Shown here piece after piece: positions 472 to 22,882 of a stretch of 64,000 bases of DNA (its first letter is position 1; each line of letters starts with the position of its first letter). The notes below the pieces were generated by a model that was not told the origin of the DNA, did no database searches, and saw nothing but the letters and a program-made list of their open reading frames with translations. The position numbers and the translations under genes are program-made. Source of the DNA: an uncultured cyanobacterium (GTDB lineage Bacteria > Cyanobacteriota > Cyanobacteriia > PCC-9006 > JAAUQQ01); the NCBI GenBank assembly GCA_963718615.1, contig OY970368.1, positions 4,160,001 to 4,224,000 on the forward strand. Reading direction: 5' to 3'.

Positions 472-3444
472 TCAATAAGAAAAGAGAGGACTCACCCAGG
501 AACTCAGTCCTAGCAACCCAAAACTATTTTTATTCGTTTGCACTGGAGTTAGTTCTAATAGAGGATTAACCTCTAGAGTCGCGGCTCCATATTCATTCGC
601 ATTCGTGATTGAACTTAATCCGGCGTCAGCGTTAGGAAAGGCGTTTGACGATACGCTAGGTGGATTGACAATAGGTTCTATCTCCAAGGCATCAGTCACA
701 GCTGATATCAATGGGTCATTTTCAGTCGCATTCTGAAAACTTCCTGCTTCTGCTGATTGCAAAAGCGTTTCGCCAGTCACCCTGCTCGTTTCAGGAAGTC
801 CAAAATCATTAAATCTGATTCTCAGGTCTTGGCGATCTATGCTTTCTTGGCCCTCTAAGCCAAATTGGGTGGCAGCAACGGTGACTTCAAAAATATTATC
901 TTGATCCGCATCAGAGCCAGTACTGGCGATCGCCTTAAAGTTGAGTTGTCCGCTAATGGGATCAAGCTGAAATTGATTTGAATCTCGTCCTCCTACGATG
1001 CTGTAAGTGATTTCTGGTGCTATGCTGTAGCGATCTATCGCATGATTAAGGGACTCTGCAATGAAAGGAATATCAACCTCCAGAGTTTGGGAGTTGCCCA
1101 GGCCCACATAGGTCACCTGCGGTCCATTTAAAGAGAATTGCGGTTGGTTCTCAAATTGAGCAATCACATCATTACGATAGAGCAGTTGATTACGTTGAAT
1201 TCTGTAATCCGATACCTTGCCGAAGAGTTGAAGTTTATCTGAGCTATCAAAATCCGAGAGAGTCGCATGGCCTGAGCCTTGGAAATATGCCCCTTTGACA
1301 TCACCCAAAATCACAATGTCACTGCCGCCTCCCGTCGTAATTTTGGCATTCTTGCCTTGGGCGCGAATGATGTCATTGCCATTGCCCGTGGTGACAACCA
1401 TGGCCTGAGAGTCATAGCCTTGGATGGAGATAACATTGTTGCCCGACCCGGCATTGACCTCATAAGTACTGGAAATAGAGGGTTGAAGCAGTCGTCCAAG
1501 ATTCAGGAAACCTAAAAGACCACCGGACTGGGAGCTGGAGGAGCCAGAGTTGGCCGTTCCATCCAAGGGTTCAAAGTAAATGGTGTCATTTCCATCACCG
1601 GTTCGGATGGATTGATTGTCGTCCTTCGTGCCTTTGGTCCAAATTACATTGTCCCCTCCTAGGTCCTGGATGACCGTTTTTCCACCCTGGACAATTAGCG
1701 TGTCGTTGCCCAGACCCCCATTAATCTGGCCCCCTTGACGTCCCAGCACCGCAACATTGTTGCCATTCCCCGTCTCAAGAGTCTGTGCTTCGTCATAGGC
1801 CGGAAGAATCAAATCATTAGCATCATCTCCCCGCAGATTTTGCGTCCGCAGAATGAGCGGAACGCTAGGGATGGCCTGTACTTGGGTGACATTAAGGGAA
1901 CGATTATCCAGGATGATCTCAGCGCTGTTTCCCCTGCCATTGCTGATGATCTGCACAGAGGCTACATCAAAACCCTCTTCTTGCCAAAAGGAAGCGGAGC
2001 TACTACTGACAGCGGCACGCCGCCGTTCGTACAGCCCGGTGCTTGCCGATGGTGCTAGGCTGTTATAGAGGGCTTGCAGCCTACTATTTTCAAGAGATGA
2101 GGGCAGTGAGTTGCTAGATGCTGGGCTGGAGTTGCTCTGTTCGGGCAAGTTACCTTGCAATGCGTCTCGTAATTCCTCTACTTCAATGCCGAGCCGGGCC
2201 GCGAGGGAGAGCTCAGCCTGGGCTCGGAGCTGGCTGTAATCGGGATTGGCAGTTGAGGCATTGGTCAAATCGTAGCCAATGGCATCGAAGGCGCTGAGGT
2301 CAAGGTCAGAAATGCTGGAGCGATCGCCCAGCGCTACACTCGGATCCATAATGCCTAGCGTATTCACCGCTTCATCCGAGGACTGGGGAGCTAAGGTCTG
2401 TTGAGCTCCAGAAGAAGGACCCGTCAAAAGTGAACCGAGCAATCCGTCCACGAGATTAAACAGCCCCCCCAGTAAAATGCATCCTTCCCCCAAAGAGCTT
2501 TGCGAGGTGGTTTGCTGGTTTGGCGGGGCAAATAAACGATTGGGAGAATCGACCCAGTCTGCCTCACTGACTTCAAAGGACAGGTCAAACAGAATTTGAA
2601 CAAAGGCTTGTAAATTCTCGGATGAGGAGCCTTCTAGTTTAAGATCGTTTGAAAGACGGCGATCGGCGGCGGCATTGCCTGGTCCCCAATGGCTCGCCTG
2701 GTAACCATCCGCATAGTTACCCAAGGGAACAATTCCGGTGGAAAAATTAGCCAAGGAGGTCTGACCACCATCCAAGGAAAAGTATGCCGCCGCCCCTCGG
2801 GTCAATTCTCGACTGTTTTGTTCAAGGCTGCGATCGCTATAGCGGAAGAGGTCTAGCAGGGTTGTCTGGGCTAACTGTTGGGACAGTCCCCCTTGAGAGG
2901 GTGCATCTACGCCGCTGATGAAGCCGAGAATATGGCCAATTTCATGGAGCGCAACACCCAATAAATCTAAGGTGTTGGGTTCCATCTCGCCGTTGCGCTG
3001 CAAATCCTCATCCCAGGAGAGTTGCCTATTCTTGCTCAAGTCGTTAATGATAATTTGGCCATCTAGCTCCTTGGAATCAGCATAGGAAATGCCTAGAGCC
3101 TCTGCTTGAGCCTGCGTTAATGTGATGCGCTGACCGAGATAGGTTTCATCCTCCAACAGTACCGAAAAGCCATTCTCAACCTGAAGATTGGCGAGGGCTG
3201 TGGTATCCCGTCCGGATGTTGCATCAGCCGCAAGAGCCGCCTTGACCTGGGCCACATCTACTTCCACATAGGTGGGTAATGCTCCACCCAGAACATTGTC
3301 CGGTAGAGCCGATGTCGCGGCAACTTGAATATCGACAGTAATGTCATCCTGGAGATAATTAGACCACAGTTGCCCAGCCATCTCGAAGGCCAACATCTGC
3401 TGGATGGAGGTCTGTGGGGAGAATGTGAAATTAACAACAGCCAT
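472..3444 (-). CDS. Secreted Zn metalloprotease (NF038122-like N-terminus) with RTX-type Ca-binding repeats and a cadherin-like domain
   Basis: HEXXH motif ALHEIGHILGF; LLDLFRYS, YFSLDGG, ASHW and IMDP motifs; Gly/Asp nonapeptides (GGLGNDTL, TGDGNDTI, TGNGNDII); cadherin-like YSIVGGRD...D.D.DNIFEVTV. Confidence 0.8.
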   Translation of the reverse strand: MAVVNFTFSPQTSIQQMLAFEMAGQLWSNYLQDDITVDIQVAATSALPDNVLGGALPTYVEVDVAQVKAALAADATSGRDTTALANLQVENGFSVLLEDETYLGQRITLTQAQAEALGISYADSKELDGQIIINDLSKNRQLSWDEDLQRNGEMEPNTLDLLGVALHEIGHILGFISGVDAPSQGGLSQQLAQTTLLDLFRYSDRSLEQNSRELTRGAAAYFSLDGGQTSLANFSTGIVPLGNYADGYQASHWGPGNAAADRRLSNDLKLEGSSSENLQAFVQILFDLSFEVSEADWVDSPNRLFAPPNQQTTSQSSLGEGCILLGGLFNLVDGLLGSLLTGPSSGAQQTLAPQSSDEAVNTLGIMDPSVALGDRSSISDLDLSAFDAIGYDLTNASTANPDYSQLRAQAELSLAARLGIEVEELRDALQGNLPEQSNSSPASSNSLPSSLENSRLQALYNSLAPSASTGLYERRRAAVSSSSASFWQEEGFDVASVQIISNGRGNSAEIILDNRSLNVTQVQAIPSVPLILRTQNLRGDDANDLILPAYDEAQTLETGNGNNVAVLGRQGGQINGGLGNDTLIVQGGKTVIQDLGGDNVIWTKGTKDDNQSIRTGDGNDTIYFEPLDGTANSGSSSSQSGGLLGFLNLGRLLQPSISSTYEVNAGSGNNVISIQGYDSQAMVVTTGNGNDIIRAQGKNAKITTGGGSDIVILGDVKGAYFQGSGHATLSDFDSSDKLQLFGKVSDYRIQRNQLLYRNDVIAQFENQPQFSLNGPQVTYVGLGNSQTLEVDIPFIAESLNHAIDRYSIAPEITYSIVGGRDSNQFQLDPISGQLNFKAIASTGSDADQDNIFEVTVAATQFGLEGQESIDRQDLRIRFNDFGLPETSRVTGETLLQSAEAGSFQNATENDPLISAVTDALEIEPIVNPPSVSSNAFPNADAGLSSITNANEYGAATLEVNPLLELTPVQTNKNSFGLLGLSSWVSPLFSY

Positions 3445-3789
3445 TGAGAGCTTAGCCGATAAGGTGTCGGGAATAAAGGGGACTTGAAGTGGTCGATGCG
3501 GTGGATCCTGAAAAAGCTCGGGACAGTCAGGGAGTTTATCTGGAGAACAACAGAAATTAATCCCTTAGGCGTCAATGTTTCATCAAAAAAGAGAAGTTAC
3601 TCCATTAGAATCTCGCAAAACTCAAATTTTAGAACAGGGCAATGACTCTATGGAGATGTTGGAATTTGTGAGATATAGGCATCATGTCATAGAAACTAAT
3701 TCAGGAAAAGATATATCCATATATTCACGGAGAGTTGACAGCAATTCCTTTGATTTTTTTGTTATCTTGACTTGAAAAAACTTGATTAT

Positions 3790-4067
3790 TTAGGCAAAAG
3801 AAGATGTCCCAAATTTTATGCCTAACAAAATAAAAGACAAATCTTTGCATCACAAGAGATTAAGATATTCCAATTCAATGTCGATTTAAATCATCATCAA
3901 ATGAAATAGAACGTCAGGTTTTAGTTGATGGTTATTTCCCAAAATGATTCTCTGTCAACTTCACTCTCTAATAATCCCTGCCTCAAGACAGACGATGTTG
4001 GGGCTGCCTTCCTCCAGCATTGAGGCTGAGTTCGTGCGTCGAAAAAGGTGAAATTAACAACTGCCAT
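3790..4067 (-). pseudogene. Heavily decayed tandem copy of the metalloprotease 5' region
   Basis: 4048-4067 matches 3425-3444 at 19/20 nt (MAVVNFT, with F next in both). Downstream broken frames give SFDDDLNR (cf. SWDEDLQR) and HKI/GHLL (cf. HEIGHIL); many stops. Confidence 0.45.
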
Positions 4068-4454
4068 GACAACAATCGCCAAGGTAACTTGGTCTCACAG
4101 AGTTTCAGCCCTGAGATAGGCGATCGCAGGCCCTGGAACCACGGAGAGCAAGAACCACAATCGGATATTCAACCCAGACTCATAAAACAAGTGATGATTT
4201 TACTGATAGCATCACTGACTAGGGATCTATGACGACTCGTAGCGAGTATGTCACAGGTATTGTTAGATCTAGGGATAATTCTCCGTTGCTTTACTAACTA
4301 TTAATCGGTTTCTACTGGATACTTTTCCTGTCTTGATTCAGAAAAACTGAGAGTGACGCCCTAAGATGGGGAACGCTGTAGGAAGAGTCTGGTCCTTGCA
4401 TTTGCCACCTTTCGTTACGGTTTTCGCTACAGATGTGGCTGCTGGCTTATTGTC

Positions 4455-7427
4455 GTGACTCATCCCAATGGTTACTTACCCGTTGCATCTGCTTCGCTGT
4501 CCTGGGTTCCTGCACTTGTGCTTCTCCCTGGAGAGTGGCTTGGGTTTGGGCTGGCTGCACAGGCTCAGGTCGTGCCCGATGCAACGTTGCCGATGCCATC
4601 TGTGGTCTCTGGGGATGGCACACCCGGTTTGCAGCGCATTACTGGGGGAACCCGGCAGGGGAATCATCTCTTCCATAGTTTTGAACAGTTCTCCATCCCC
4701 ACCGGGGAAATCGTTGAGTTTGCGAATGAGCTGGATTTAGAGATTATTTTTAGTCGGGTGACCGGGGGCGATCGCTCCACCCTAGAAGGCACCCTCACCA
4801 CCCAGGGCAACGCCGACTTCTTTTTGATCAATCCCCATGGGTTTCTCTTCGGCCCAGACGCCCAGCTCAATGTCGGTGGCTCCTTCATTGCGAGCAGCGC
4901 CAGCCAGGTGGAGTTTTCTGATGGTACAACCTTCAGCGCGGTGGCTCCCGAGGCAACGGGCCTGCTGAGCATCAATCTTCCCGTGGGATTGCAATATGGG
5001 GCAGCACCTGGCGAGATTCAGGTGCAGGGTCCGGGCCATGGCCTCGAAATTGATCCAGCCACCCTAGCTATCGCGCCGGTCAATCCGCCCTCAGCTCGCT
5101 TGGCGGTGAATCCGGGCCAGACCCTTGCCCTTGTGGGAGGCCCTGTTTGGCTAGCGGGGGGAAATGTAGCGGCTCCGGACGGGCGCATTGCCCTGGGAGG
5201 TGTCGGTGGGGGCAGTCTTGTGGGATTGCAGAGAGATGACCTCGGTTGGCAATTGGATTACCAAGAAGTGCTCCAGTTTGAAGATGTCTGGTTGGACCAG
5301 GCCGCTTCTGCGGTGACCACGGGGCCGGGGGGCGGCGAGATCGAAGTGGTAGGTCAGTTTGTGGATCTGCTGGAAGGATCAACGCTGCTGGCGAATACGA
5401 CGGGGGACCAGACCGGTCGTGGCATTACCCTCACAGCGGCAGCGGGTAGCCTCATCCAAGGCGCGGCCTATGATCCGAGTGGGGCGATCGCCGTCTTTCC
5501 CACCAGCCTCTTTGCGGAAGTGGACCTAGACGCGCTAGGGAACGGCGGCACTATTGCTATCACAACCCCCGTTTTGGAGGTGAGTGACGGCGCTCAAATT
5601 TCGACTTCAACGTTCGGGTTTGGCAATGGCGGCGATCTGATGATTCGAGCCGATGAAGTGTTATTGTCTGGCGGTACGGTGGAGCTTGGCCCCAGTGGTT
5701 TTTATTTAGATGTAGCGGATTTCTTCGCTGAGGGCAATGGAGGCAATCTGGATCTCTTGGCAGAGCAACTGACGATCGCCAACGGAGCCAATATTGCCGC
5801 CAATATCTTTGGATTAGGAGATGGCGGTCGGTTGCGGCTCCAGGCCAATCAAATCGATCTCCTGGGGGGAGCAGCGGGCTTAGGGCCGAGCCGCATTGTC
5901 GCCCAGGTTGAAGGTGGCCTGGGCAACGGTGCTCAAATCGACCTGGTGGCCGATCAGCTTAATCTCTTGGACGGTGCCCAGATTTCCAGCAGTCTGTTTT
6001 TGGCCGAAGGGAATGGCGGTGCGATTAATATTCAGGCCAGGGATCTAAATCTGAGGGGGGCCTCTCCCAGTGGGATTTCTAGCGGTATTATTTCCCAGGT
6101 GGAGGCAGAGAGTCTAGGGCGGGGCAGCGATATTACAATTCAGGCGGAGCGGGTGGCGATCGCCCAGGGAGCCGAGATCAACAGTCTCACCTTTGCCTCA
6201 GGTGACGCTGGCAATATTACCATCGACGCCACCCAGATTGACCTCGTCGGAGTAGCGGGAGATGCCACCGGCATTTTTACCACGGTCGAAACCGGGGCTT
6301 TGGGTAACGGGGGTCGCATCGACCTCAAGAGCCAAACAATCCAGATCCAGGACGGAGCTCAGGTTGCGGTGGGCACCAAGGGTCAGGGCAATGGGGGCAG
6401 TCTGGTGGTGCAGGCGAGTCAACAGGTCTTGCTCCAGGGGGGCAATGATGAGGGCCGCAGTGGTCTGTTTGCCAATGCACTGATCGATACCGGGGCAGGA
6501 GGCGATATTCAGGTGCGCAGCGATCGCCTCACCCTCCAGGATGGGGCCACAATCAGCGCCAGTAATTTTTCTAGTCAAGACAATCTCCCGCCGGGGCAGG
6601 GTCCAGCGGGCAGCATTACCGTCCAAGCCCGCCGGATTGAGCTGTTGAACGGTTCAACGATTACAGCCTCGACCTCAGTGGGCGATCGCGGCAACATCAC
6701 CCTGACCGGGGAACAACTGTTGCTGCGCCAAGGCAGCAGCATTACCACCGATGCCCAAGGCTCCGCCACGGGCGGCAACATTGCCATCAACAGTCAATTT
6801 CTCATCGCCCCCGCCGCCGAAAATAGTGATATTACCGCCAACGCCATCCAGGGCCAAGGCGGCAATGTGACGGTGACGGCCACCAGTCTTTTGGGAACTG
6901 AATTTCGGCCACGTCTGACCCCCCAAAGCGACATTACCGCTAGCTCCGAGTTTGGCCTCAATGGCACGGTCGTGATCGATCAACTCAAGGGTGATCCCGC
7001 CTCTGGCAGTACGGAATTGCCGGAAACCTTAGCGGATCAGGGCGATCGCCTCGTGGCCAGTTGCCCCTCCGAGGCCCAGGCAGAATTTATCGTCTCAGGG
7101 CGCGGCGGCATTCCCGCCGATCCGGGGCTGGCACTAGAAGAGCAAGTCTTGGTCACCCGCCAACCTCTGATCCAGACGCTCCCCACCGCCCAGGCCAATC
7201 TCCCCCAACCCGAACCGTCCCAGGTTGAATGGTCCGAAACAAGAACGCTCCCGACCCGCATCACAGAAGCCCAGGCTTGGCGCAGAACGATGAATGGAAC
7301 CATACAACTGCTGGCAACTGTTCCCTCTAGAAACTCTACGGCCTCAGGATTACCGACCCCTGGAATTGCCTCTGCACCGCCGCTCACCTGTCGTCAGCTC
7401 AAAGCCCAAGCCCCCTCTTTAAGATGA
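4455..7427 (+). CDS. Filamentous-hemagglutinin N-terminal (TPS-like) domain beta-helical exoprotein, cyanobacterial type
   Basis: AQAQVVPDATL, NHLFHSFEQFSI, FSRVTGG, NPHGFLFG; GNGG-xIxI beta-helix repeats; C-terminal ITASSEFGLNG and FIVSGRGGIP...EAQAW. Confidence 0.9.
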   Translation: MTHPNGYLPVASASLSWVPALVLLPGEWLGFGLAAQAQVVPDATLPMPSVVSGDGTPGLQRITGGTRQGNHLFHSFEQFSIPTGEIVEFANELDLEIIFSRVTGGDRSTLEGTLTTQGNADFFLINPHGFLFGPDAQLNVGGSFIASSASQVEFSDGTTFSAVAPEATGLLSINLPVGLQYGAAPGEIQVQGPGHGLEIDPATLAIAPVNPPSARLAVNPGQTLALVGGPVWLAGGNVAAPDGRIALGGVGGGSLVGLQRDDLGWQLDYQEVLQFEDVWLDQAASAVTTGPGGGEIEVVGQFVDLLEGSTLLANTTGDQTGRGITLTAAAGSLIQGAAYDPSGAIAVFPTSLFAEVDLDALGNGGTIAITTPVLEVSDGAQISTSTFGFGNGGDLMIRADEVLLSGGTVELGPSGFYLDVADFFAEGNGGNLDLLAEQLTIANGANIAANIFGLGDGGRLRLQANQIDLLGGAAGLGPSRIVAQVEGGLGNGAQIDLVADQLNLLDGAQISSSLFLAEGNGGAINIQARDLNLRGASPSGISSGIISQVEAESLGRGSDITIQAERVAIAQGAEINSLTFASGDAGNITIDATQIDLVGVAGDATGIFTTVETGALGNGGRIDLKSQTIQIQDGAQVAVGTKGQGNGGSLVVQASQQVLLQGGNDEGRSGLFANALIDTGAGGDIQVRSDRLTLQDGATISASNFSSQDNLPPGQGPAGSITVQARRIELLNGSTITASTSVGDRGNITLTGEQLLLRQGSSITTDAQGSATGGNIAINSQFLIAPAAENSDITANAIQGQGGNVTVTATSLLGTEFRPRLTPQSDITASSEFGLNGTVVIDQLKGDPASGSTELPETLADQGDRLVASCPSEAQAEFIVSGRGGIPADPGLALEEQVLVTRQPLIQTLPTAQANLPQPEPSQVEWSETRTLPTRITEAQAWRRTMNGTIQLLATVPSRNSTASGLPTPGIASAPPLTCRQLKAQAPSLR

Positions 7428-10120
7428 ACATTTCTCCGCTTAAACCCTGGCGTTTTCTGGCATTAGTCGGTCTCACGTTTTGCCTGATTCTGGTAAGTGG
7501 GATGGGCAGCAGTGCGCGAGTGCAGGCTCGCATCGCTCCGATAGTTCAAACAGCGGCTGTTCCCGCAACTGTTGCCCAGGCCGAAATCAAGGCCGAAATC
7601 AAAGCCGAAATCAAGGATTGGGCCACCTGGGGACAACACCAACACCAAGCGGCGATCGCCCTCCAATCCCAAGGCCAATGGGCACTTGCCGATGCGATCC
7701 TCAGCCCCGCCATCGAGAAACTTGCCCCAAAATCCTTCCCCTTGCTGAGAGCCCAACTCCTGGATAGCCTCGCCCTAGGCCAACTCCAACAGGGACAAGC
7801 CGCCGCCGCCCTCGAAACCTGGCAGCAGGCGGAGCAATCCTATCGACAGGTCCGCCCTGGCCAAACCTCTCCTGAGACGGTTTCCGCCGAACAAGTGCAG
7901 CAAGCCCTGCTGGGTAATCGCATCAACCAAGTGCAGGCCCTGCGAAACCTGGGTTTCTATCGCCGAGCCCAAACCCAGCTAGAGCAGATTCAGCAAACCC
8001 TCCACCAGCGCCCCGACGATGGGCTCAAGGTGAAAGCCCTGCAAAGTCTGGGGGTAACCCTGCGAGCTGTCGGGGAGGGGGAACGCTCCCAAACCACCCT
8101 CGAAACCGCCCTGCGACTCGCCCAATCGCTTAATTTACCTCAAGCCGAGATCAATGCTCTCCGCCTCAGCCTAGCCAAAACCCTGGAAGCTCAGGGCAAT
8201 GGCCAAGCTGCCCAAGCGTTGTATCAGCAAATCAAAGATCAACCCGTCCCAAATCTGCTCTCCTCAAAACCGTCCCATCAACCCCTTCAAAACCAGCCCA
8301 CGACCCCCGCAGCCTGGGAAGCCGAACTGCAACAGCTCCGCCTCTGGAGTCAAAATCGTCAGACCGATCGAGTCTGGCAACAGGCCCCAGGCTTAGCCGC
8401 CCAGCTCATTGCTCTGCCAGCCAGCCGCTGGGGGATTGACGCCCAGGTGAATCTGGCAAACACCCTGATGGACAGCCGAGGCACCGATTCCGCCCTCAGA
8501 CCCCACCAAGCTGCGGCGATCGCGCAACTCCTCCAAAATGCCCTCCAGCAAGCCCGCAGCCTCTCCGATCCCAGGGCCGAATCCTACGCTCTGGGCTACC
8601 TCGGCCATCTGTATGAACAACAAGGACAAACCAGCGATGCCCTCAGTCTGACACGACAGGCGATCGCCCTCGCCCAGCAAGCTCAAGAAGCCAACGCCCT
8701 CACCCGCGCCCTCACCCAATGGCAATGGCAGTTGGGTCGTTTGTTAGCAGCTCAGGGGGATCGCAAAGGGGCGATCGCCCTCTATACCGAAGCCTTCCAG
8801 GGTCTCGAAACCCTCCAGCTCGATCTCGTCACCATGAACCCCGAGGTTCAATTCAGCTTTCGCGAACAAGTAGAGCCGGTCTATCGCCAACTGGTCGATC
8901 TGCTGCTCACCGATCTGGATAACCTCCCTACGCCCCAACAGCAACTGCAACTGCGTCAGGCCCGTCAGGTGATAGAGGCCCTGCAACTGGCAGAATTGCA
9001 AGACTATTTCCGCAGCGCCTGTCTCACCTATGAAGAACAGGCCATTGAGGACATCGATCCTCAGGCGGCGGTGCTGTATCCGATTGTGTTGGGCGATCGC
9101 ATCGAAGTCATCGCCTCCCTCCCCAATCAACCCCTGAAGCACTACAGCACCCAGATCTCAAGCCAGTCGCAACAACAACTGTTTGCAACGATGCAAACGG
9201 CCCTGCATCCCATTCAGCCCGCCACCCAAGTCCTCAAACCGGCTCAGCGGTTTTACGATATCCTAGTACGCCCCCTAGAGACCGAACTGGCCCAGCAGGA
9301 TATCCAAACCCTCGTTTTTGTCGCTGATGGCTTTCTCCGCAGCGTTCCCATGGCAGCCCTGCACGATGGCCAACAATTCCTCGTGGAAAAATATGCCCTG
9401 GCCCTCAGCCCCGGTTTGCAATTACTCAATGCAGCCAAGATTAGCGCCCAAACGCTACAAAAACCGGAACAACTGCTCCTAGCGGGTATTTCTCAATCGA
9501 TTCAGGGCTTCCTCCCCCTGCCTGCGGTTCCGCGAGAACTGGACAGTATCCAACAACGTTTACCCAGTAAAGCCTTGTTGAATGAGAACTTTACCCGCAG
9601 TGCTTTAACCCAGCAACTTGAGAAGAATAATCTATCCATTCTTCATTTAGCCACCCATGGTCAATTCAGTTCAAAGGCGGAGGACACTTTTGTATTGGCC
9701 TGGGATGATCGAATCAACGTTAGGGATCTTGACCCGCTCCTCGCCCCCCAGGGGCGGACAGCTCAAGCTCGCGCAGGGCTAAGGTCAGGGCTACGGTCAG
9801 GGGCAGGGTCGGGAGCATTGCGATCGCTCGAACTCCTCGTCCTCAGCGCCTGCGAAACCGCCAAAGGCGATCAGCGAGCCACCCTAGGCATGGCCGGGGT
9901 AGCAGTTCGTTCCGGAGCCCGCAGCACTGTTGCCAGTCTTTGGAGCGTCTTTGACACCTCGACATCCCTAGCCATGCCCACCTTCTACGAAAATCTCATC
10001 GAACCCGATGTCTCCCGAGCCGAGGCCCTGCGTCGTGCCCAATTGAGCTTATTGAAGAATCCGGCATATCAGCATCCCTACTACTGGGCACCGTTTGTTT
10101 TGATTGGAAACTGGCAATGA
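7424..10120 (+). CDS. Exported TPR-CHAT (caspase-like) peptidase
   Basis: N-terminal hydrophobic signal/TM; TPR-like helices; CHAT motifs LHLATHGQF (His), LVLSACET (Cys), ASLWSV, HPYYWAPFVLIGNW; overlaps upstream gene by ATGA. Confidence 0.92.
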   Translation: MNISPLKPWRFLALVGLTFCLILVSGMGSSARVQARIAPIVQTAAVPATVAQAEIKAEIKAEIKDWATWGQHQHQAAIALQSQGQWALADAILSPAIEKLAPKSFPLLRAQLLDSLALGQLQQGQAAAALETWQQAEQSYRQVRPGQTSPETVSAEQVQQALLGNRINQVQALRNLGFYRRAQTQLEQIQQTLHQRPDDGLKVKALQSLGVTLRAVGEGERSQTTLETALRLAQSLNLPQAEINALRLSLAKTLEAQGNGQAAQALYQQIKDQPVPNLLSSKPSHQPLQNQPTTPAAWEAELQQLRLWSQNRQTDRVWQQAPGLAAQLIALPASRWGIDAQVNLANTLMDSRGTDSALRPHQAAAIAQLLQNALQQARSLSDPRAESYALGYLGHLYEQQGQTSDALSLTRQAIALAQQAQEANALTRALTQWQWQLGRLLAAQGDRKGAIALYTEAFQGLETLQLDLVTMNPEVQFSFREQVEPVYRQLVDLLLTDLDNLPTPQQQLQLRQARQVIEALQLAELQDYFRSACLTYEEQAIEDIDPQAAVLYPIVLGDRIEVIASLPNQPLKHYSTQISSQSQQQLFATMQTALHPIQPATQVLKPAQRFYDILVRPLETELAQQDIQTLVFVADGFLRSVPMAALHDGQQFLVEKYALALSPGLQLLNAAKISAQTLQKPEQLLLAGISQSIQGFLPLPAVPRELDSIQQRLPSKALLNENFTRSALTQQLEKNNLSILHLATHGQFSSKAEDTFVLAWDDRINVRDLDPLLAPQGRTAQARAGLRSGLRSGAGSGALRSLELLVLSACETAKGDQRATLGMAGVAVRSGARSTVASLWSVFDTSTSLAMPTFYENLIEPDVSRAEALRRAQLSLLKNPAYQHPYYWAPFVLIGNWQ

Positions 10121-11058: not shown

Positions 11059-11258
11059 AGCTTGGTTCACTGGTGTTTGCCCATGTTTCCGCCCATGCCC
11101 AATCCTGCATCCAAGTCACCGCTTCCCGAAGGTCAAACGGTTGGGAGGGTATTATCCGGGATAATCTGAGTTTGGAAGAGTACCCATAGCAATCCTGAAG
11201 AGTGATATCGATTTGATTCGGATTGAGACCCTCGCTCTGTTTCTTGAACAACTCACTC

Positions 11259-11290
11259 AAAAAAACCGAAGGCAACAAGCTGCCTTCGGT
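11259..11290 (-). terminator. Intrinsic terminator of the adhesin gene
   Basis: Perfect 10-bp stem ACCGAAGGCA/TGCCTTCGGT, 6-nt loop, followed by a T-run on the minus strand. Confidence 0.75.
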
Positions 11291-11351
11291 CCTGAATTCA
11301 GAATTTCTCTGAAATGAGCTGGGATTGCATCAATAGAAGATGCTGTGCGGT

Positions 11352-14645: not shown

Positions 14646-16291
14646 AGCAAATAGTCCTAACCAGAGAACATTGACAACGCACCGAATAAGCCCATAACCC
14701 AACTCACGCACTACAAAAATCCTACAAAGATTCAACTCTCAGCTTTCGGGAGGTAGGTTAAATGTAATTTTGGGATTTGCGATCGCCATACCAAAGACAA
14801 TCCAAATCACCGACAAGAGATGCAAGCAATTACTGATGCGATATTGAAATCGTACCAGACAAACTCAGCTTGTCAAATTCACCATCCTCCTTTTCAAGAA
14901 GCCATGAATTTGAATGAAAGAACACCTAAACCCCCAAAAACAAAGGAGTTTACAATCCAGACAAAAATTCATTTTTGACGAAAAATTACTTCACAGAAAA
15001 TCTTTTTATAACACTTTAATTAAGTTTCACATTAGCCACAAAAGCTCTAAATAGCATCAAGAATACTTGATACTTTCTGGTAATCAATTGTATTCTTTTG
15101 TGCCCATCGATCACACAATTCAGACAACATCGCTCTAGCACGAGAATTAAAAAAAGACATTGAAATTTACGCCAATGGCCAAGCAAGAGAGAAAAGAATG
15201 CTGTCTTGGCAGTCGACATCCAACACAAAAAAGCTAGGGCAAAGAGTGAAGAAAAAATTTTGATATAAACCCCAAGCAGCAGATCCGGACTGTTAGTTGA
15301 CCCTATTATTTGCTATTGCCGCCGTTGCTTTTAAGGCATAAATAATAGACTGATTGACAAGCTTTATTTGAGGATTGCTTTTCTTGACTATCCCTTAAAG
15401 GCAAACAAGCCATGACTGATTTTTTAATTATTCAACTTCAATCTCTAATCCCAACAGACATCCTCTTGGAGAACTTATACATCTTACAAACATAAAAAAC
15501 AGCGATTCAAATATAGAGTTTCAAAAATACGAAAGAAATCGAATGGTTTTCTCTTTCTATTTTTATCTTGTGCCGTGGACTCAGTATTGCGTGGCTTCAA
15601 AAAACTTCAATCTTATCAACCTAAATCATTCCCATCGGATGTGATCGGAAGAGAAGAAGCGGAACAGAAGCAAATACTCCTAGCTCACTGAAACGAGGGA
15701 ACCATAGTGCCTGGAAGCTCGTGAATCAGAGCTCGTGAAACAGCAGCAGATTACAACTTACTTTCACCTTAGGATCAATTCTGACTGCATTATTGCTCTA
15801 AATTTGTAGGCATCTGGATATAAGATAGATGAGTATACGCAGAAGCACTGTATACTTTTGTGGCCAGTATTGTGTTTTTTGAGGAACGGCATAGTCTGAC
15901 CGTTGAACGCGCTCAGGCTAGGAACAGGGAGTCTCACCCCTTTGGGAAAGTAAATGAGTAGCCGACAGCGCTCAATGATTTCTAGAAATATTAAGTCTAA
16001 AAAATACAGAATAAAACTTTAATCCACGTTCAAGCAAAACGACTGGTTTTTGGACCTTAATTATGCTTTAAGCATGGATCAAATTGCCTCTTGGCGTTTT
16101 TAGAGGGCTGTTTTACGATGCAAGGGCTTGCCCAAAAGAAACATTTAAAAATCAAAAACCCAATAGATTTTCAACAGTTTTTACGGATTTTTCTGGCCAC
16201 TAAAGCACCACTAAAGCAGCACCCAAGCGATAGCTCTGCGCAACAGAGTAGATCTCTGCATTTTTGTACGTACAGGAGATATTGAACCAAG

Positions 16292-18139
16292 ATGGTACCC
16301 TTGACTTTGACAACGGTTCCCTGCGAAGTGAAAGATCTAATTGATCTCACAACTTTTCGTGCAGCGAATACACCAGATAAGTTGGCCTATCGTTTTCTGG
16401 AGAACGGAGAGACCCTAGAGACCACTCTGACCTATGCTGAATTGGATCAGCGGGCTCGGGCGATCGCAGCTTGTCTTCAGGATCTTCAGCTCTACCAAAA
16501 ACCTGTACTGTTACTCTATCCCCCTGGATTGGAGTACATCTGCGCCTTTTTGGGATGTCTGTATGCGGGGGCGATCGCGGTTCCAGCCCCTCCGCCTCAA
16601 CGCAACCAAAATCTCAGCCGATTGCAATTCATTGCACACAATTGTCGAGCGAACACCTTGCTGACCAATGAGGCTGTTTGGCGTAAACTCCAAAATAATC
16701 CAACGATCCACACCGTTCTCAATCAGCTCAATCTGTACGGGGTGGTTACGGATGAGCTTGAATCCGCCACCGCCCACCTCTGGTCCAGACCGGACATTCA
16801 GCCCGAGGACATTGCCTTTTTACAATACACCTCAGGCTCAACTGGAGATCCAAAAGGGGTCATGATTAGCCATCGAAATATTTTACAAAATTCCGAATCC
16901 ATCTATCGCTTCTTTGGACATTCCAATCAAAGTCATACCCTGAGCTGGCTGCCTCCGTACGATAGTATGGGTCTTGTCGGCAGTATTTTGCAACCGCTCT
17001 ACGGCGAGTTCCCCAGCACACTATTTCCCCCCATCTACTTCCTGCGGAATCCTCTGCGCTGGTTGCGAGCGATCTCTCGATACGGAGCCACGACCAGCGG
17101 CGGACCCAACTTTGCCTACGAGCTTTGTCTCAAAACAGCAAAATCAGAGGATTTAGAAAACCTGAATTTGAGCCATTGGGCGGTTGCATTCAACGGGTCT
17201 GAACCGGTTCGCCCTCAAACCCTAGAGCGTTTTGCACGAACCTTTTTGTCCTGCGGTTTCCGGCCCGAAGCCTTCAACTCTTGCTATGGCATGGCGGAGT
17301 CTACGCTGATGCTTACAGGCGGAGAGCTTCAGACCCTCCCAACCCTCTGTCATCTGGACAGTGCTGCGCTGGAACGAGGAAAAGTAGTCGTAAAAACCCG
17401 CCCCAACGTCGGGAGTCGCACCTTGGTCAGTTCCGGTTTCCCCCAAACCCACGGAAAACTGCTGATTGTAAATCCACAGTCTGAAGAGGTCTGCCCTGAG
17501 GGTACTGTGGGAGAAATTTGGGTCGCAGAGTCAAGTATTGCCCAGGGCTATTGGGGGCGTCCGGAACAAACCCAGGCAGTCTTTCAGGCTTGGCCCTCGA
17601 AGGAGAAGAAAGGTCCCTTTTTACGTACAGGAGATTTAGGCTTCCTGTGGAAAAATGAGCTGTACGTCACAGGGCGTCTGAAGGACTTAATTGTTATCCG
17701 GGGACAAAATTACTATCCCCAAGACATTGAACTCACCACCGAACAAAGTCATCCCAGTTTGGCGGCTGGGGCGGGTGCTGCGTTTAGTGTGACCGATGTT
17801 CAAGGCGAAGAACATTTGATCATTCTGCAGGAGGTGGAGCGTTCGTTCGTCCGTCATATCGATGATAAAGCAGTTATTGCGGCAATTACTCAAACCGTAG
17901 GACGTGAGCATAACCTTCAGATCTATGCGGTTGCTCTCCTTAAACCGGGAACCCTTCCAAAAACCTTCAGCGGAAAAATTTGTCGTCGGGCTTCACGTCT
18001 AGCTTTTCTTGCAGGCAATCTTCCGATTATTAATGATTGGAGTGAAAATCCCCGTATCAAACGTCAGTTTCAATCACTACAAGCCGATATGGACAAACTG
18101 CTGGCCCAACTGGCTAAAGTCTATGCGGTTAAAGTCTAA
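16292..18139 (+). CDS. Stand-alone fatty acyl-AMP ligase (FAAL)
   Basis: FLQYTSGSTGDPKGV, SGGPNFAY, YGMAEST, FAAL-type insertion (LDSAALERGKV), RTGDLGF, GRLKDLI..RGQNYYPQDIE, PKTFSGK; no fused ACP. Confidence 0.88.
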   Translation: MVPLTLTTVPCEVKDLIDLTTFRAANTPDKLAYRFLENGETLETTLTYAELDQRARAIAACLQDLQLYQKPVLLLYPPGLEYICAFLGCLYAGAIAVPAPPPQRNQNLSRLQFIAHNCRANTLLTNEAVWRKLQNNPTIHTVLNQLNLYGVVTDELESATAHLWSRPDIQPEDIAFLQYTSGSTGDPKGVMISHRNILQNSESIYRFFGHSNQSHTLSWLPPYDSMGLVGSILQPLYGEFPSTLFPPIYFLRNPLRWLRAISRYGATTSGGPNFAYELCLKTAKSEDLENLNLSHWAVAFNGSEPVRPQTLERFARTFLSCGFRPEAFNSCYGMAESTLMLTGGELQTLPTLCHLDSAALERGKVVVKTRPNVGSRTLVSSGFPQTHGKLLIVNPQSEEVCPEGTVGEIWVAESSIAQGYWGRPEQTQAVFQAWPSKEKKGPFLRTGDLGFLWKNELYVTGRLKDLIVIRGQNYYPQDIELTTEQSHPSLAAGAGAAFSVTDVQGEEHLIILQEVERSFVRHIDDKAVIAAITQTVGREHNLQIYAVALLKPGTLPKTFSGKICRRASRLAFLAGNLPIINDWSENPRIKRQFQSLQADMDKLLAQLAKVYAVKV

Positions 18140-18383
18140 ATAATGCTCCTGATTCTAGAATCTATGGTAACTTTTGAAGTAACATTGTTCCTGGGCTGAC
18201 CCTTGAGCACAAAACTCAACCCAAGCCAAAGGAATATGAAAAGTTATGCGAAGTTGCCGGATAGATAGCTCTCCCTGGGAATTCTGGAATGAGTCAGTTG
18301 CCACAATATCAACCTGTGCCCGGTTCCTTAAAAACCTCTGCCTGGTTGTCTGAATCCTGATTATTCCTGAAATCACGACGGCC

Positions 18384-19964
18384 TTGAGCCAACGTCTTCG
18401 GGGAATATGGTGCATCCACCGTTTCCCAGTGAATGTCAGCTCAAGAGGGTTCTCTGTGCACAGTCAGTCCTTATCTAATCATCCCACCTCATCACCTGCA
18501 CTGGCAGGTCTATCCGGTTGGCCCACTCATATTCAGCCCCTGTCCCCCAGACAAGAGGAAGAATATGGAGCCGCCCTCAATTTTCTCTTAAATCTTCATA
18601 CTCCAGGCAGTCTGACAACGGTTCAAACTGCCATTTTCTACCATTGCTGGCTGGGCTTAACCTATCAGGAAATTGCCGAAGAACTGGGCTACGACGCTAG
18701 CTACATTCGCAAAAATGGGTCGCAGTTGTGGCGTTTTCTCTCAGAGCAATTGGGTGAGGAGGTCAAAAAAAGCAATTTTAAGGTCATCATCCAACGACAA
18801 CTGATCCAACCGACAGCGAGTCCATTCAACTCCCCTGGAACCGCTCCCTCTACCCGAATGCTGAGCCCCATTAATCCCTCTGCAAAACTGGTCTCTATCG
18901 CTACACAATCAACGACTCACTCCATTGCTACCGTTCATTCCAATACAGCATCCACAAGGTCTGCGGATGGCGTATCAGACTACTATCAGGAGCGGCCTCC
19001 TATTGAACATCGCTGTTGTGAAACCCTAATGAAGGAGGGCTCACTGATTCGCATTAAAGCTGCGGCCCAGATGGGCAAAACGGCGTTAATGAATCAAATT
19101 TTACAATATGCCCATCAGCAACAGTTTCAAACTGTTACGCTCAGTTTTCGGTTGGCCAGTGATTCGGTTCTTTCCAGTGTCGATCGTTTCTTTCGTTGGT
19201 TCTGTGCTACCGTGGGCCATCAGCTAGATTGCCCTAATCAGGTCGAGTCTGAATGGGATGATATTTTTGGAGAAAGTTACAACTGTACGCATTATTTTGA
19301 GACCCATTTACTTCAGAGAGATGCCTCTGCCATGGTTCTGGCCTTAGATGATGTAGATCGATTGTTTCAATATCCGGCGGTAGCCACAAATTTCTTCCAA
19401 CTGTTACGAGCTTGGCACGAGAAGGCCAAACACGGCGGTGGCAGCGGTGAAGTCTGGAAAAAGCTTCGTTTAATCATCGTCCATTCCACAGAGGTCTATC
19501 TTCCTCTCCATCACCATCAATCTCCTTTTAATATTGGACTTTCTATCAAACTACCTGAATTTACCGAGCTACAAGTTCAACAATTGGGTCAAGCCTATGG
19601 CTTGGAGCTTCCGCTCCATCAGGTTCATCAATGGGTTAACTTAGTGGGCGGTCATCCTGGTCTTGTGGAGTTAACGCTGGAATGGTTGCAACAGGAAAAC
19701 GCATCGTTGGAGCAGGTTCTGAGTAATGTTATGGAACCAGAGGGGCTTTACTACGACTATTTGCAACGACAACTGCGATCGCTACAACAATACCCAGATT
19801 TGATGCCGTTGGTCCAAGAGATCATGACCGCAGATGCCCCAGTCACGGTCGAAATCCTCCAGGCATTTCGGCTAGAGAGCCTCGGACTCGTGAAGCTTCA
19901 GGGCCATCGGGCCGTTCCCAATAGTGAACTTTATCGACAATATTTCAGGAAAGTGTTGGGCTAA
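18384..19964 (+). CDS. HTH + AAA-like (AAA_35-type) ATPase; start uncertain
   Basis: N-terminal [20 protein letters not shown]...GSQLW..LS..LG; YQERPPIE; [13 protein letters not shown]; LALDDVD; HSTEVY; SPFNIG; GGHP. Confidence 0.82.
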
Positions 19965-19969
19965 GACAA

Positions 19970-22828
19970 ATGCACCGTCCGGTTAATTTTTCTGGCAGCC
20001 AGTATCAGGTTGGTGGCAGTCTTTCCCCCGACACTCCCTACTATGTCCAGCGTCAAGCGGATAGCGAGCTGTACGATGCATTACTGGCAGGGGAATTTTG
20101 CTATGTGCTCAATTCCCGGCAAATGGGAAAATCGAGTCTGCAAGTTCGAACCGCAGAGCGGTTGCGCCAGCAAGGGATTAGCTGTGCAATTCTCGATTTA
20201 ACCAGTATTGGAAATGAGCGAATCACAGCGGAACAGTGGTATGCCAGCTTGCTTCACAGCTTGAGTACTAGACTGAAGTTAGATAGATTTCGTCAGGAGT
20301 TTCGTTCCTGGTGGAATGGAGTGAGTCAGTTCTCTTTAAGTCAGCGGATGGTAATTTTCTTTGAGCAGATTTTGCTTCGAGAGATTGAAGAGCCCATTGT
20401 CATTTTCATTGATGAAATTGATAGTATTCTGGGGTTAGATTTTCCCTGTGATGATTTTTTTGCACTGATTCGTCATTGTTATAACCAACGGGCAGATGCT
20501 CCCCAGTGGAGGCGTTTGACCTTCGCCATTGTGGGGGTAGCTTCTCCTGCTGAACTGATTGCCGACGAGTATCAAACCCCTTTTAATGTGGGCCGAGCGA
20601 TTGAGCTTCAAGGCTTTAGCAAACAAGAAGCTCAACCCTTACTCAGTGGTTTAGAGACCCTGTTACCCGAGCCAGAACAAGCCCTTAAGGAAATCCTATA
20701 CTGGACCCAAGGGCAACCCTTTTTAACCCAAAAGATCTGTCAGCTCGTTGTTGATATTGAAACCGGACAACGCCTAGTTAAATCTTCCGCAACCTCGCTC
20801 CAACTACAGTATCAAGACTTTCCTATAGGGAACTACTCGGATTATATTGCCAACTTGGTGCATCACTGTGTAGTTGACAACTGGATGGAAAATGATGAAC
20901 CGGAACATCTTCGTAGTATTCGCGATCGCATCCTCCATGATTCGCGCAATGTCAATCTATTACTGAGCCTTTATCAGCAAATTCTCCAAGGAGAACGGAT
21001 TGTTACGAACAACAGCCAAGGCCAAACAGAACTCAGGTTATCTGGCTTAGTCACGACGGTTCAGAATCATTTACAGATTAAAAATCCGATCTACCAAGCG
21101 GTCTTTAATCAGGATTGGGTCACTCACCATTTAGATGCCTTAAGGCCCTATGCTTCATCTTTAAACGCCTGGGTCGAGTCCCATTATCAGGACACCTCCC
21201 ATTTGCTGAAGGGTGAGGCCTTGCAGCAGGCCCTGCTTTGGTCTCAGCAGCGACAACTGGGAAAGGTTGACTATCAATTTTTAAACGCCAGTCAGGCCGA
21301 GGAAAAGTACCAGCTTGAATATCAACTTACTCAAGAAAAAAGACGGCGGCAGCAGGCTCAAGCGACAGTGCAATCCGCCCAAAAAGCCCACCAGCTCCTA
21401 AGTCAGGCCCGAAAACAGGCGCGAATCAAGATGGCTCAGCGATCCCTAGGAAAACGTTGGTTAGTGAGCCTGAGCTGCCTAGTGACCATAGGCGTTGCAT
21501 TACTGCAATATTCAGGGGCCTTGCAGCCAGTGGAGTGGTGGCTGCTAGATGCGTTTATTCAATGGCGTTCTAATGATCGGCGACTCGCTGGCGATACATT
21601 GGAGCACACCGTTACTCACAACCTTGACCCCAAGCTCGCCTTCGCCAGCCCTCCACGGGTTGCCAACGATCGGTTTTTAGCCCCGATCACCGTGATTACG
21701 ATTGACGAAGCAGATGCCCAACAGTTGGGGCAGGCACCGGTCAGCGATGCCATTGTGCTACAAGCGCTTCAGCAGATTCAAGGCTGGAATCCCCGCCTCA
21801 TTGGCCTCGATTTGTATCGCAATTTGCCCCTAGAACCGGGTCATGACCCGCTCATGGGGTTTTTGGCGGAAAGCAATCATGTTATTGGCATCAACCGTGT
21901 AGTAGAATCTCCCCTGCCGCCAGCGCCAGCCTTGGCTAAAACTGGGCGGTTTGGTTTTGCAGATCAAATCGTCGATGGGGATGGAACTGTGCGTCGGGCT
22001 CTGCTCTCCGTCGAAGATGATGCGGGAGAGGTGCAATACAATTTTGCACTGCGCTTAGCCCTAGAATATCTTGAGGCCGATGGGATTACCCTCCAGACCC
22101 TGCAAAATCATCAGATTCAACTGGGAAAGCTACGGATAAGACCCTTCCAAAGTTATGACGGAGCCTACGTTAGAGCAGATGCAGGCGGCTACCAAGTTTT
22201 GCTCAACTATCGAGGCCCCCAGGAGCGGATTCCAACATTCTCCCTGTCTCAAGTTTTAGCCGCTCAGGTTCCTCCCCAAGCCTTCCGCGATCGCATTGTT
22301 CTGATCGGATCGATCGATCCCACCTGGAGCAACCGTCTGCTCATCCCCTACAGACAAAGGGTTTTCGGTTTACCGGAATACGCTTCTGGGGTCATGCTCC
22401 ATGCTCAGATCCTGGAACAACTCCTGGCAGGTGCGATCGCTGGCCGACCGTTGTTGCAGACTTTGCCAGAGGAATTGGAGTTGGCTTGGCTTGGCCTATG
22501 GACGCTAATCGGTGTCCTGATTAGTAGCCGCCATCGCTTTCCCCGACAGATGGTGCTATTGCTGTTGTTGGGAGAGGGAGGGTTGGTGGCGATCGCCTAT
22601 CTCTGTTTTGTAGGCAGTTGGTGGATTCCACTCGTCCCTTGCATTCTGGCCTTAAATCTAGCCACGCTGATTCATCCCCTCTGGATGGGACGTCGCTACG
22701 AGAAACAACTCATTCAAGAAATTACCCAATATTTACTGCACTCGACGGAGAGTCCCCCCGATGTGATTCACCTGGCGATCGAATATCTAAAGCAAAGCGA
22801 AAAACCGCTCTATCATCCCAAGCCGTAA
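19970..22828 (+). CDS. AAA-like ATPase - TM - CHASE2 - 3TM membrane receptor
   Basis: [47 protein letters not shown]; coiled coil; TM; CHASE2 motifs [33 protein letters not shown]; 3 C-terminal TMs with only a short tail. Confidence 0.88.
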
Positions 22829-22882
22829 TGACGGGGATTGGGTATATTCTAGAGACCTAGAGACGTTAACTTTGAGCAGACT

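Follow-up and report, generated by a model that had tools for sequence, protein, structure and literature searches.

A five-gene cyanobacterial locus that looks like an undescribed, kinase-free pathway from the cell envelope to gene control

The window considered here is a 64,000-nucleotide stretch, positions 4,160,001-4,224,000, of the single-contig genome (6.10 Mb) of an uncultured cyanobacterium. Coordinates are counted within the window unless a genome position is named. Five genes on its forward strand look like an undescribed envelope-to-gene-control pathway that works without a kinase. The first three encode a TpsA-like exoprotein with a two-partner secretion (TPS) domain (4455-7427, 990 residues), a caspase-like TPR-CHAT protease that is predicted to be exported (7424-10120, 898 residues) and a DUF928 protein, likewise with predicted export (10117-11058, 313 residues from the ATG at 10117). 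The other two encode ATPases of the AAA_35 family, namely the A subunit, in which a helix-turn-helix (HTH)-like module precedes AAA_35 (18384-19964), and the B subunit or receptor (19970-22828, 952 residues), in which AAA_35 is followed by a transmembrane (TM) segment, CHASE2 and three more TM segments. The domain calls of an earlier note, made from the letters of the window, hold in Pfam and NCBIfam family searches except for one neighbouring "RTX/cadherin" gene. The two ATGA overlaps that it read, TPS/CHAT and CHAT/DUF928, are present in the DNA, the second on condition that ATG 10117 is the true DUF928 start. Likewise, the A and B genes are separated by 5 nucleotides, and the locus contains no kinase, cyclase or GGDEF.

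The first product had been described as similar to filamentous hemagglutinin, and it has a TPS domain (Pfam 1.4e-53; TIGR01901 1.7e-22) whose match spans positions 1-251 of a profile of 252. This domain matches the solved secretion domains of HMW1 (2odl) and HxuA (4i84, 4rm6). It is N-terminal and is followed by Gly/Ala-rich repeats, and the motif FIVSGRGGIPADP is found about 80 residues ahead of the C-terminus. Many TPS proteins carry a motif of the form F..(T/S)GRGG(L/I/V)P..P at 66-93 residues from the C-terminus. The pattern G[RK]GG[LIVMF]P occurs in 10 of the 24 TPS proteins of the genome versus just 11 among all 2651 open frames with 300 residues or more, and in other genomes a motif of this type is present in 10 of the 13 stand-alone TPS open frames checked. 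Every complete TPS gene adjoining an AAA_35-CHASE2 receptor that was checked has it; the TPS frame of locus L066, which has no such motif, holds just the N-terminal part of a TPS gene that is broken into two frames. TPS-CHAT fusions, which join CHAT to a protein with an outer-membrane secretion domain, number four in this genome and four in others, and the motif is found in none of these eight. It could be a docking or cutting site for a separate protease, or part of a C-terminal module that CHAT replaces. Elsewhere, at G000:C1:2,059,871-2,064,563, a TPS frame overlaps a 246-residue CHAT frame in another reading frame and looks like a frameshifted TPS-CHAT fusion.

The second product has TPR repeats (TPR_12), a CHAT domain (8.4e-61) covering profile positions 2-289 of 289 and a hydrophobic segment at residues 6-29, in agreement with its description as a signal-bearing TPR-CHAT protein. 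The His/Cys dyad reported for it can be read in the protein as ILHLATHGQF and LVLSACETAKG. In the CHAT family the HG and SAC motifs form the catalytic dyad, and proteolytic activity is a prediction here. A signal-like N-terminal segment is present in 12 of the 14 stand-alone TPR-CHAT relatives checked, and the protein is predicted to act outside the cytoplasm. No sequence match between it and a solved structure was obtained at E<=0.01.

The third product matches DUF928 (8.8e-29, 101 bits against a cut-off of 26), as had been claimed. From the N-terminus, it has a signal-like segment, a low-complexity linker and the conserved Arg/Cys motif; an Ig-like beta-sandwich comes next, and the helices at the C-terminus are short. 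The signal-like segment starts about 37 residues after ATG 10117, and alternative ATGs are found at 10165, 10183 and 10225. In the structure model (predicted local distance difference test, pLDDT, 71) the N-terminal half is disordered, and short helices come after an Ig/FN3-like sandwich at residues 113-228 (numbered in the 277-residue form). Structurally this model comes closest to a carbohydrate-binding module, to complement MG domains and to FN3 domains; no solved structure is related to DUF928 by sequence. An alignment of the family reveals a conserved FxPPxxGxPGxRxGGGTRGxC in the disordered part, which includes one Arg that never varies and a conserved pair of Cys; in some paralogues this motif is repeated.

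Both ATPases have conserved Walker A and Walker B motifs in AAA_35 (Pfam 9.7e-122 in A and 7.8e-38 in B). The A gene has three start candidates (TTG 18384, GTG 18429 and GTG 18456). In the model of the A protein (pLDDT 82), residues 1-49 are disordered, 55-141 are helical, 145-192 form a disordered linker and 200-526 comprise a nucleotide-binding domain (NBD), a helical domain and a winged helix, with Walker A AAAQMGKT and Walker B LALDD. AAA_35 forms a separate Pfam family, and no solved structure matches it by sequence. The best Foldseek matches of the A model are the archaeal Walker ATPases 2qen and 2fna and, each at a probability of 1.00, CED-4, Apaf-1, plant NLR resistosomes (NRC and Sr35), Avs3, MalT and ORC/Cdc6.

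The B protein contains a cytoplasmic AAA_35, a charged helical stretch (residues ~440-495), TM1 (~498-516), a periplasmic CHASE2 (1.3e-51; ~517-835), three TM segments (~838-906) and a conserved 46-residue tail. Hydropathy gave the segments at ~498-516 and 862-906, and the TM segment at ~838-856 was read by eye. The receptor had been read as an AAA-like domain, a TM segment, CHASE2 and three TM segments with no enzymatic output past them, and this architecture is upheld: one hydrophobic segment is found ahead of CHASE2 and a cluster behind it, no Pfam domain follows residue 850 and only about 46 residues remain. Across 61 homologues, little or no variation is seen in Walker A GKS, in Walker B DE or in the residues of the tail. 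The same two domains are found in 118 of the 120 best database matches, query included, at 38-50% identity, and the names of these relatives span Nostocales, Oscillatoriales-type genera and Gloeobacterales. AAA_35-CHASE2 genes as a whole number in the hundreds. Two full-length AAA_35-CHASE2 matches, G495:C78:114104-116782 and G504:C39:11812-14472, contain one in-frame stop each (TAA and TGA, respectively) and may be pseudogenes or the result of sequencing errors.

The pairing of two AAA-like ATPases was examined in a first sample of 79 loci around relatives of the receptor's NTPase, scanned with hidden Markov models (HMMs) made from paralogues in the window's own genome. An A-type gene is present in 63 of the 79 B-type loci, and in 52 it lies directly upstream on the same strand. 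The A-type proteins, 69 in number, are fused to CHAT (12), TIR (11), Pkinase (7), cyclase (6) or GGDEF (5), with a caspase or trypsin domain in single proteins and HTH-type families in a few. The C-termini of 96 B-type open frames are WD40 (67), CHASE2 (9) or other (20, of which six are cut by contig ends). In the genome itself, CHAT-TIR, TIR, CHAT and the HTH-like module are the domains found on A partners, and WD40 (three) and CHASE2 (two) those on B partners. B-type AAA_35 was found at E<=1e-120 in 100 of 151 sampled genomes. The ATPase genes are widely conserved as a pair, one half of which looks like an output unit and the other like a sensor. Together, the comparison of genomes and the modelled fold indicate that AAA_35 is a STAND/ORC-type NTPase working as a two-gene switch, with the sensor on B and a variable output on A. 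Two further arrangements can be recorded. On Microcoleus and Drouetiella contigs (L005, L029, L010 and L043), a lone A-type gene precedes a tandem array of two to four B-type AAA_35-WD40 genes, each coding for about 1200 residues, as if a single output subunit served several sensors. At G000:C1:1,010,420-1,012,408 (L171), a 662-residue protein combines nSTAND1 and a weak AAA_35 match with Cas_csx3 (9.5e-26) and TPR.

The link between the two groups of genes can be seen in their neighbourhoods in other cyanobacteria. An AAA_35-CHASE2 gene is present in nine loci of the first sample. In L060, the genes for A, B-CHASE2, DUF928, CHAT and TPS lie back to back in 11 kb with nothing between them, and subsets of the partner genes are found in L066, L033, L044 and L075, the last additionally with TpsB. 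A second, independent sample was obtained with a profile of 61 receptors against 151 genomes of the class, for which full-length receptor matches are listed in 10 genomes and partial matches in 2. The ten surroundings contain an A gene in eight cases, DUF928 in eight, CHAT in seven, TPS in five and TpsB in three. L184 is the same contig as L060, and the non-redundant set comprises 21 receptor loci: nine from the first sample, L137, nine from the second sample, the window and a paralogous locus at 2.754 Mb. Within the DNA fetched for these 21, an A gene is found in 12, DUF928 in 13, CHAT in 13, TPS in 10 and TpsB in 4, and at least one partner gene is present in 17 loci; at least nine GTDB families are represented. 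The small loci L086, L124 and L142-L144 were left out of the analysis. ShlB/TpsB genes belong to the orthologous clusters L075, L176, L180 and L182 and to one cluster of the window's own genome. The TPS, CHAT and DUF928 genes of the window are each closest to copies beside such receptors elsewhere; the closest TPS relative in the fetched loci is that of L060 (606 bits), and the CHAT domain is 56% identical to the one adjoining the receptor in L066. The neighbourhood comparison proposed earlier thus finds the TPS-CHAT-DUF928 operon and the AAA_35/AAA_35-CHASE2 pair co-conserved across cyanobacterial families. Judged by gene content, TPS, CHAT, DUF928, A and B-CHASE2 make up one conserved unit, of six genes elsewhere, where TpsB is included.

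The same families cluster within the genome. Genome scans gave matches to 3 ShlB (TpsB), 25 TPS, 17 DUF928, 50 CHAT, 19 CHASE2 and 12 AAA_35, which map onto 24 TPS, 16 DUF928 and about 49 CHAT genes among the open frames. CHAT is N-terminal in six of the CHASE2 genes and AAA_35 in two. A CHASE2 gene is found no more than 3 kb from 10 of the 16 DUF928 genes, where 10,000 random placements gave a mean of 0.42 and a maximum of 4, and 15 of the 24 TPS genes have CHAT inside or within 5 kb (random mean 2.5, maximum 10, in 5,000 trials). The clustering of these gene families in the genome exceeds chance. The paralogous locus at 2,754,294-2,764,134 has the design of the studied locus, with AAA_35-CHASE2, AAA_35, TPS and CHAT. 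A separate region, G000:C1:1,957,523-1,990,766, has six CHAT genes spread over 33 kb, and in one of these CHAT is joined to a weak CHASE2 match.

The association of DUF928 with CHASE2 can be followed beyond the AAA_35 receptors. DUF928 is found in 129 of the 151 sampled genomes of the class (70 of 81 genera). A census took the best-scoring listed copy per genome in 55 genomes, with about 9.7 kb on each side. CHASE2 is present in 30 of these 55 loci, nearly always adjacent, and CHAT in 12, TPS in 9, TpsB in 5 and B-type AAA_35 in 2. In a tree of 66 DUF928 proteins, the copy of the window falls in a clade of six (Shimodaira-Hasegawa-like approximate likelihood ratio test, SH-aLRT, 97). Its remaining five members are precisely those DUF928 genes that have an AAA_35-CHASE2 receptor beside them (L033, L044, L060, L066 and L137), and none of the 60 others is inside. 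Seven DUF928 genes from six CHAT-CHASE2 loci (two in L107) form a clade of their own (SH-aLRT 95). The distance matrices of DUF928 and adjacent CHASE2 are correlated over 46 pairs (r=0.64; none of 5000 permutations as high) and over nine paralogous pairs within the genome (r=0.33; 141 of 5000 permutations as high). Since the latter pairs share one genome, species history cannot cause their correlation. The earlier statement that DUF928 goes with CHASE2 is therefore supported by loci, tree, spacing in the genome and correlated distances. The combined pattern points to DUF928 as the cognate extracytoplasmic partner of the CHASE2 sensor domain, and we infer that the two proteins bind each other.

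On the cytoplasmic side, the A protein carries an HTH-like module at approximately residues 55-141, the stretch that is confidently helical in the model. Residues ~76-140 match 19 of 68 other A-type proteins, including those of L033, L060 and L066 and the paralogue in the genome itself, and the module is present in all eight A genes that adjoin CHASE2-type B genes (L177-L184). The receptor had been paired with an HTH-bearing partner, and the same module indeed recurs beside CHASE2-type sensors. Its pattern, L..E..vL...W.G.TY.eIA...GYS..Yl......LW.KLS, resembles the helix-turn-helix layout of sigma-70 region 4. The A protein of the window scores 0.0022 with Sigma70_r4_2 (21.3 bits against a cut-off of 25.7). 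The genome encodes the module five times, and every copy is at the N-terminus of a STAND-type protein. DNA binding by the N-terminal module of A is likely from these resemblances. In a PDB profile search, the profile of the module matched the wall-binding repeats of Cpl-7 lysozyme (2.9e-08). This match was rejected as an effect of repetition, since the three repeats taken singly give E 0.6-7.

With moderate confidence, the five genes can be read as one envelope-to-cytoplasm signalling system without a kinase, built around a split, membrane-spanning STAND switch. TPS and CHAT would act upstream, where periplasmic CHAT would alter the state of the TPS filament protein or of DUF928. Candidate sites for CHAT are ...TGRGG(L/I)P... 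near the TPS C-terminus and the invariant Arg in GxPGxRxGGGTRGxC of DUF928. DUF928 would report the altered state to CHASE2, and a conformational change in CHASE2 would pass through TM1 and the charged helical stretch to the NTPase of B. B could then nucleate co-assembly with A, as a sensor NLR recruits its helper, and co-assembly would gather the N-terminal modules of A and alter transcription. A more specific version can be put forward only tentatively. It describes an NLR-like receptor with a periplasmic sensor, divided between one NTPase that senses in the membrane and another that serves as a soluble helper with a DNA-binding head, and gated by extracellular proteolysis: the exported CHAT would cut the TPS filament, the DUF928 co-receptor or both, and the exposed Arg/Gly-rich peptide would be the ligand of CHASE2. 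The TPS, CHAT, DUF928 and CHASE2 paralogues would then serve as parallel surface-sensing channels feeding c-di-GMP, cAMP, phosphorylation, cytoplasmic proteolysis or transcription.

Several observations weigh against the reading as one signalling system. In the window, 7.3 kb with two unrelated genes separates the two modules, the receptor starting 8.9 kb after the DUF928 stop, and in the paralogue at 2.754 Mb the nearest DUF928 is about 18 kb off. Four first-sample receptor loci with Nostocales titles (L046, L049, L051 and L057) have no partner gene in the fetched DNA, which extends just 1.6 kb downstream of the receptor in L049 and 2.9 kb in L057. No ShlB/TpsB gene is present in the window, so that the TPS protein would have to leave the cell through one of the three encoded elsewhere in the genome, at 1.07, 2.17 and 5.70 Mb, and these three compare with 24 TPS genes. 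The DUF928 match covers just profile positions 3-152 of 184; the protein is without the C-terminal helical region of the family (the last ~32 profile positions), and no remnant of it was found downstream in any frame. Support in the CHAT-domain tree reaches 95 or more on just 2 of 25 inner branches, a resolution too poor to define an orthologous CHAT clade. Co-duplication of DUF928 and CHASE2 as a unit, without contact, would also correlate their divergence, and such co-duplication would itself mark them as a unit. The HTH-like module also heads AAA_35-GGDEF, NB-ARC and WD40 proteins in the genome, and among 27 module sequences Sigma70_r4 is matched in four and Sigma70_r4_2 in three (E<=1), all under the Pfam cut-offs, the best being 3.9e-05 for Sigma70_r4.

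The presence of the module on other STAND-type proteins means that it could be an adaptor instead of a DNA binder. The A/B pair with CHASE2 would then be a genuine switch with protein recruitment, and not transcription, as its output, a reading that we consider unlikely. The HTH matches below the curated cut-offs are in its favour, as is the constant placement of the module at the N-terminus of a STAND-type NTPase, the position of adaptor domains in systems that have been described before (Kaur et al. 2020; PMC7159879). Yet none of the five copies in the genome is on a stand-alone effector, unlike adaptors that are shared by receptors and separate effectors. Against the adaptor role also stand the best members, with 3.9e-05 for Sigma70_r4 and, in one A-type protein, 7.3e-09 for Sigma70_r4_2, and the fit of the module pattern to the HTH layout of sigma-70 region 4.

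A role in conflict or kin discrimination is similarly improbable. TPS would here deliver or display CHAT as a contact-dependent effector of the contact-dependent inhibition (CDI) type, DUF928 would neutralise it or confer immunity in the periplasm, and the CHASE2-STAND pair would be an alarm that senses attack. Such a role would suit the expansion of the families in the genome (24 TPS, 16 DUF928, 19 CHASE2 and about 49 CHAT), the TPS-CHAT fusions that put CHAT at the position of a CDI toxin, and the location of DUF928 directly behind CHAT in the operon, like an immunity gene after its toxin. It would also suit the A-type paralogues with TIR, CHAT, caspase and trypsin, which are typical death or immune effector domains, and the STAND fold of AAA_35, like that of Avs and NLRs. 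However, DUF928 adjoins CHASE2 (30 of 55) far more often than CHAT (12) or TPS (9), it co-diverges with the type of receptor, and its CHASE2 partners bear ordinary outputs (GGDEF, EAL, kinase, cyclase and histidine kinase). CHAT in the window is part of a separate protein with its own signal peptide and is not itself a C-terminal toxin domain, and the output in the CHASE2 subfamily is the HTH-like module and not a killing domain. PADLOC v2 has no model for TPS, DUF928, A or B, and gave just a weak TPR match for the CHAT protein.

The disfavoured view that the two modules are independent chance neighbours, a TPS-CHAT-DUF928 surface or secretion module and an AAA_35 pair acting as an unrelated regulator, both abundant in the genome, can draw on the adhesin and fatty acyl-AMP ligase (FAAL) genes that separate them, on a G+C content of ~0.59 in the TPS/CHAT genes versus ~0.46-0.52 in the AAA_35 genes and on the 4 of 21 receptor loci without partner genes in the fetched DNA, but is very improbable given partner genes in the other 17 over at least nine GTDB families, the place of the window's DUF928 inside the receptor-neighbour clade and the repetition of the arrangement in the paralogous locus.

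Three other genes accompany the five. An NF038122-family metalloprotease with Gly-rich repeats (472-3444, reverse strand; NCBIfam 8.5e-71) precedes them, an adhesin with cadherin-like, Big_9, SdrD_B and RTX matches in Pfam (11352-14735, reverse strand) lies between the two modules, and a FAAL (16292-18139, forward strand; AMP-binding 2.3e-62) ends 244 nucleotides upstream of the A subunit on the same strand. The earlier note had listed a lone FAAL, and Pfam together with FAAL-type NCBIfam matches identify it as a FAAL-type adenylase. Of the two large RTX/cadherin exoproteins that it named, the adhesin is cadherin-like/RTX as described; the other is the metalloprotease, in which no Pfam RTX or cadherin match was obtained at E<=0.01 and in which inspection by eye gives Gly-rich repeats of GGxGxD type and a stretch resembling cadherin. 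Among the open frames of 134 related loci, the metalloprotease has no match, the FAAL one weak match and the adhesin six weak, repeat-level matches, and the adhesin is absent from compact versions of the cluster. These near-zero counts mark the three as bystanders. As parts of the system they were rejected, not being conserved neighbours, and the adhesin is probably outside it. Adhesin genes had been proposed as regulated targets of the HTH protein; since the metalloprotease, the adhesin and the FAAL are not conserved neighbours, nothing here marks them as such targets. The earlier observation is thus largely right, and its interpretation is right in outline and wrong on the flanking exoproteins.

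Some features of the surroundings can be recorded in addition. A 48-codon frame at 3921-4067 (reverse strand), in a 1-kb spacer, begins with MAVVNFTF, the same eight residues as the metalloprotease start at 3444, and may be a duplicated 5' end of that gene. Weak similarity to the adhesin repeats (E 1e-18 to 1e-26) is found at L103:12983-18237 and L130:4157-7075, inside CHAT-CHASE2/DUF928/TPS clusters belonging to two other genomes, and repeat-rich surface proteins may be occasional members of such clusters. A proteasome-subunit-like gene (22883-23653, forward strand; Pfam Proteasome 2.9e-06) begins 54 nucleotides past the receptor, and strong homologues (243-384 bits) are located 4-7 kb from DUF928 genes in L098, L102 and L110; this proximity to DUF928 or the receptor could reflect old synteny or a genuine link. 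With the genes compared as above (4000-11000 versus 16000-23000), the G+C content of two long spacers is 0.38-0.42. Rfam at gathering thresholds gave no match in window positions 1-26000. Promoter-like sites (14 versus 14.7 in shuffled sequence) and terminator-like sites (19 versus 22.7) are at the level of the shuffles, and a repeat search returned just repeats internal to the adhesin and short matches containing GCGATCGC.

CHASE2 is among the commonest sensor domains of cyanobacteria, and we know of no ligand for it and of no function for DUF928. A cognate DUF928-CHASE2 pair would offer each family a testable partner. If true, the split STAND switch of AAA_35 would add to bacteria an arrangement like that of sensor and helper NLRs, and one that can be driven from outside the cytoplasm. 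The link to TPS and an exported CHAT suggests how organisms that are mostly filamentous and live attached to surfaces could relay signals from the cell surface to their genes without a kinase, and such a pathway would give context to the large and puzzling CHAT and TPS families of cyanobacteria. There is a fair chance that the pathway as a whole is new in kind. The literature touches on related arrangements. In Nostoc punctiforme, a cluster of CHASE2, DUF928 and WD40 has been noted, and sll1891 is described as responding to acid stress (PMC5587647). Caspase proteins that end in CHASE2 or STAND modules have also been mentioned (Kaur et al. 2021; PMC8195603), and a review offers the speculation that death signals are received by CHASE2-orthocaspases (PMC7475262). 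A further paper, with passages on STAND NTPases and cyanobacteria, does not contain the terms CHASE2, CHAT, hemagglutinin, two-partner, AAA-like or paired (Kaur et al. 2020; PMC7159879). In the literature searched, with subscription journals and supplements outside its scope, no publication was found that joins CHASE2 with the CHAT domain, that joins the CHAT domain, filamentous hemagglutinin and cyanobacteria, or that appears under PF14516 (AAA_35), and AAA_35-CHASE2 is undescribed there.

The proposed system shares individual features with several known ones. As in STAND proteins and NLRs, the model of AAA_35 has the fold of a P-loop NBD, a helical domain and a winged helix, and the modular logic of effector, NTPase and sensor is retained, with WD40 sensors and TIR or caspase-like effectors in AAA_35 paralogues. 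In contrast, AAA_35 systems divide effector and sensor between two polypeptides that both contain an NTPase and are encoded by adjacent genes, and the CHASE2-type sensor is placed outside the cytoplasm between membrane helices, whereas classical STAND proteins are soluble. The nearest analogy to the A/B pair that we know of is offered by paired sensor/helper NLRs, or by NAIP-NLRC4. The receptor resembles other CHASE2 receptors in having CHASE2 between an N-terminal TM segment and a C-terminal TM cluster. Paralogues in the genome have the usual C-terminal outputs (Ser/Thr kinase in two, GGDEF in three, GGDEF-EAL, histidine kinase in three and cyclase), while the cytoplasmic module of the window receptor is an N-terminal NTPase and only the 46-residue tail follows the last TM segment; the six paralogues with N-terminal CHAT carry it in place of the NTPase.

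Comparison with two-partner secretion systems (FhaB/FhaC, HMW1 and HxuA) rests on the TPS domain and on TpsB in the clusters L075, L176, L180 and L182. Maturation proteases are known for two-partner secretion systems. The locus differs in that TpsB is missing from the window, that a clan-CD-type CHAT is the constant companion or C-terminal fusion partner, and that the operon ends in DUF928, which is tied to a CHASE2 receptor. Csx29 ("Craspase") is a CRISPR-associated TPR-CHAT protease, and the window protein is similar in having TPR followed by CHAT with the His/Cys dyad; it differs in its signal peptide, its predicted extracytoplasmic location and its lack of a CRISPR context. Envelope signalling by regulated proteolysis or by surface signalling of the FecA-FecR-FecI type serves as an analogy only, since the components are not homologous and the transducer here would be an NTPase switch and not an anti-sigma factor. 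The likeness lies in the order of the parts, with a protein on the outer surface, a relay in the periplasm, a transducer in the inner membrane and a sigma-like output, and no phosphotransfer.

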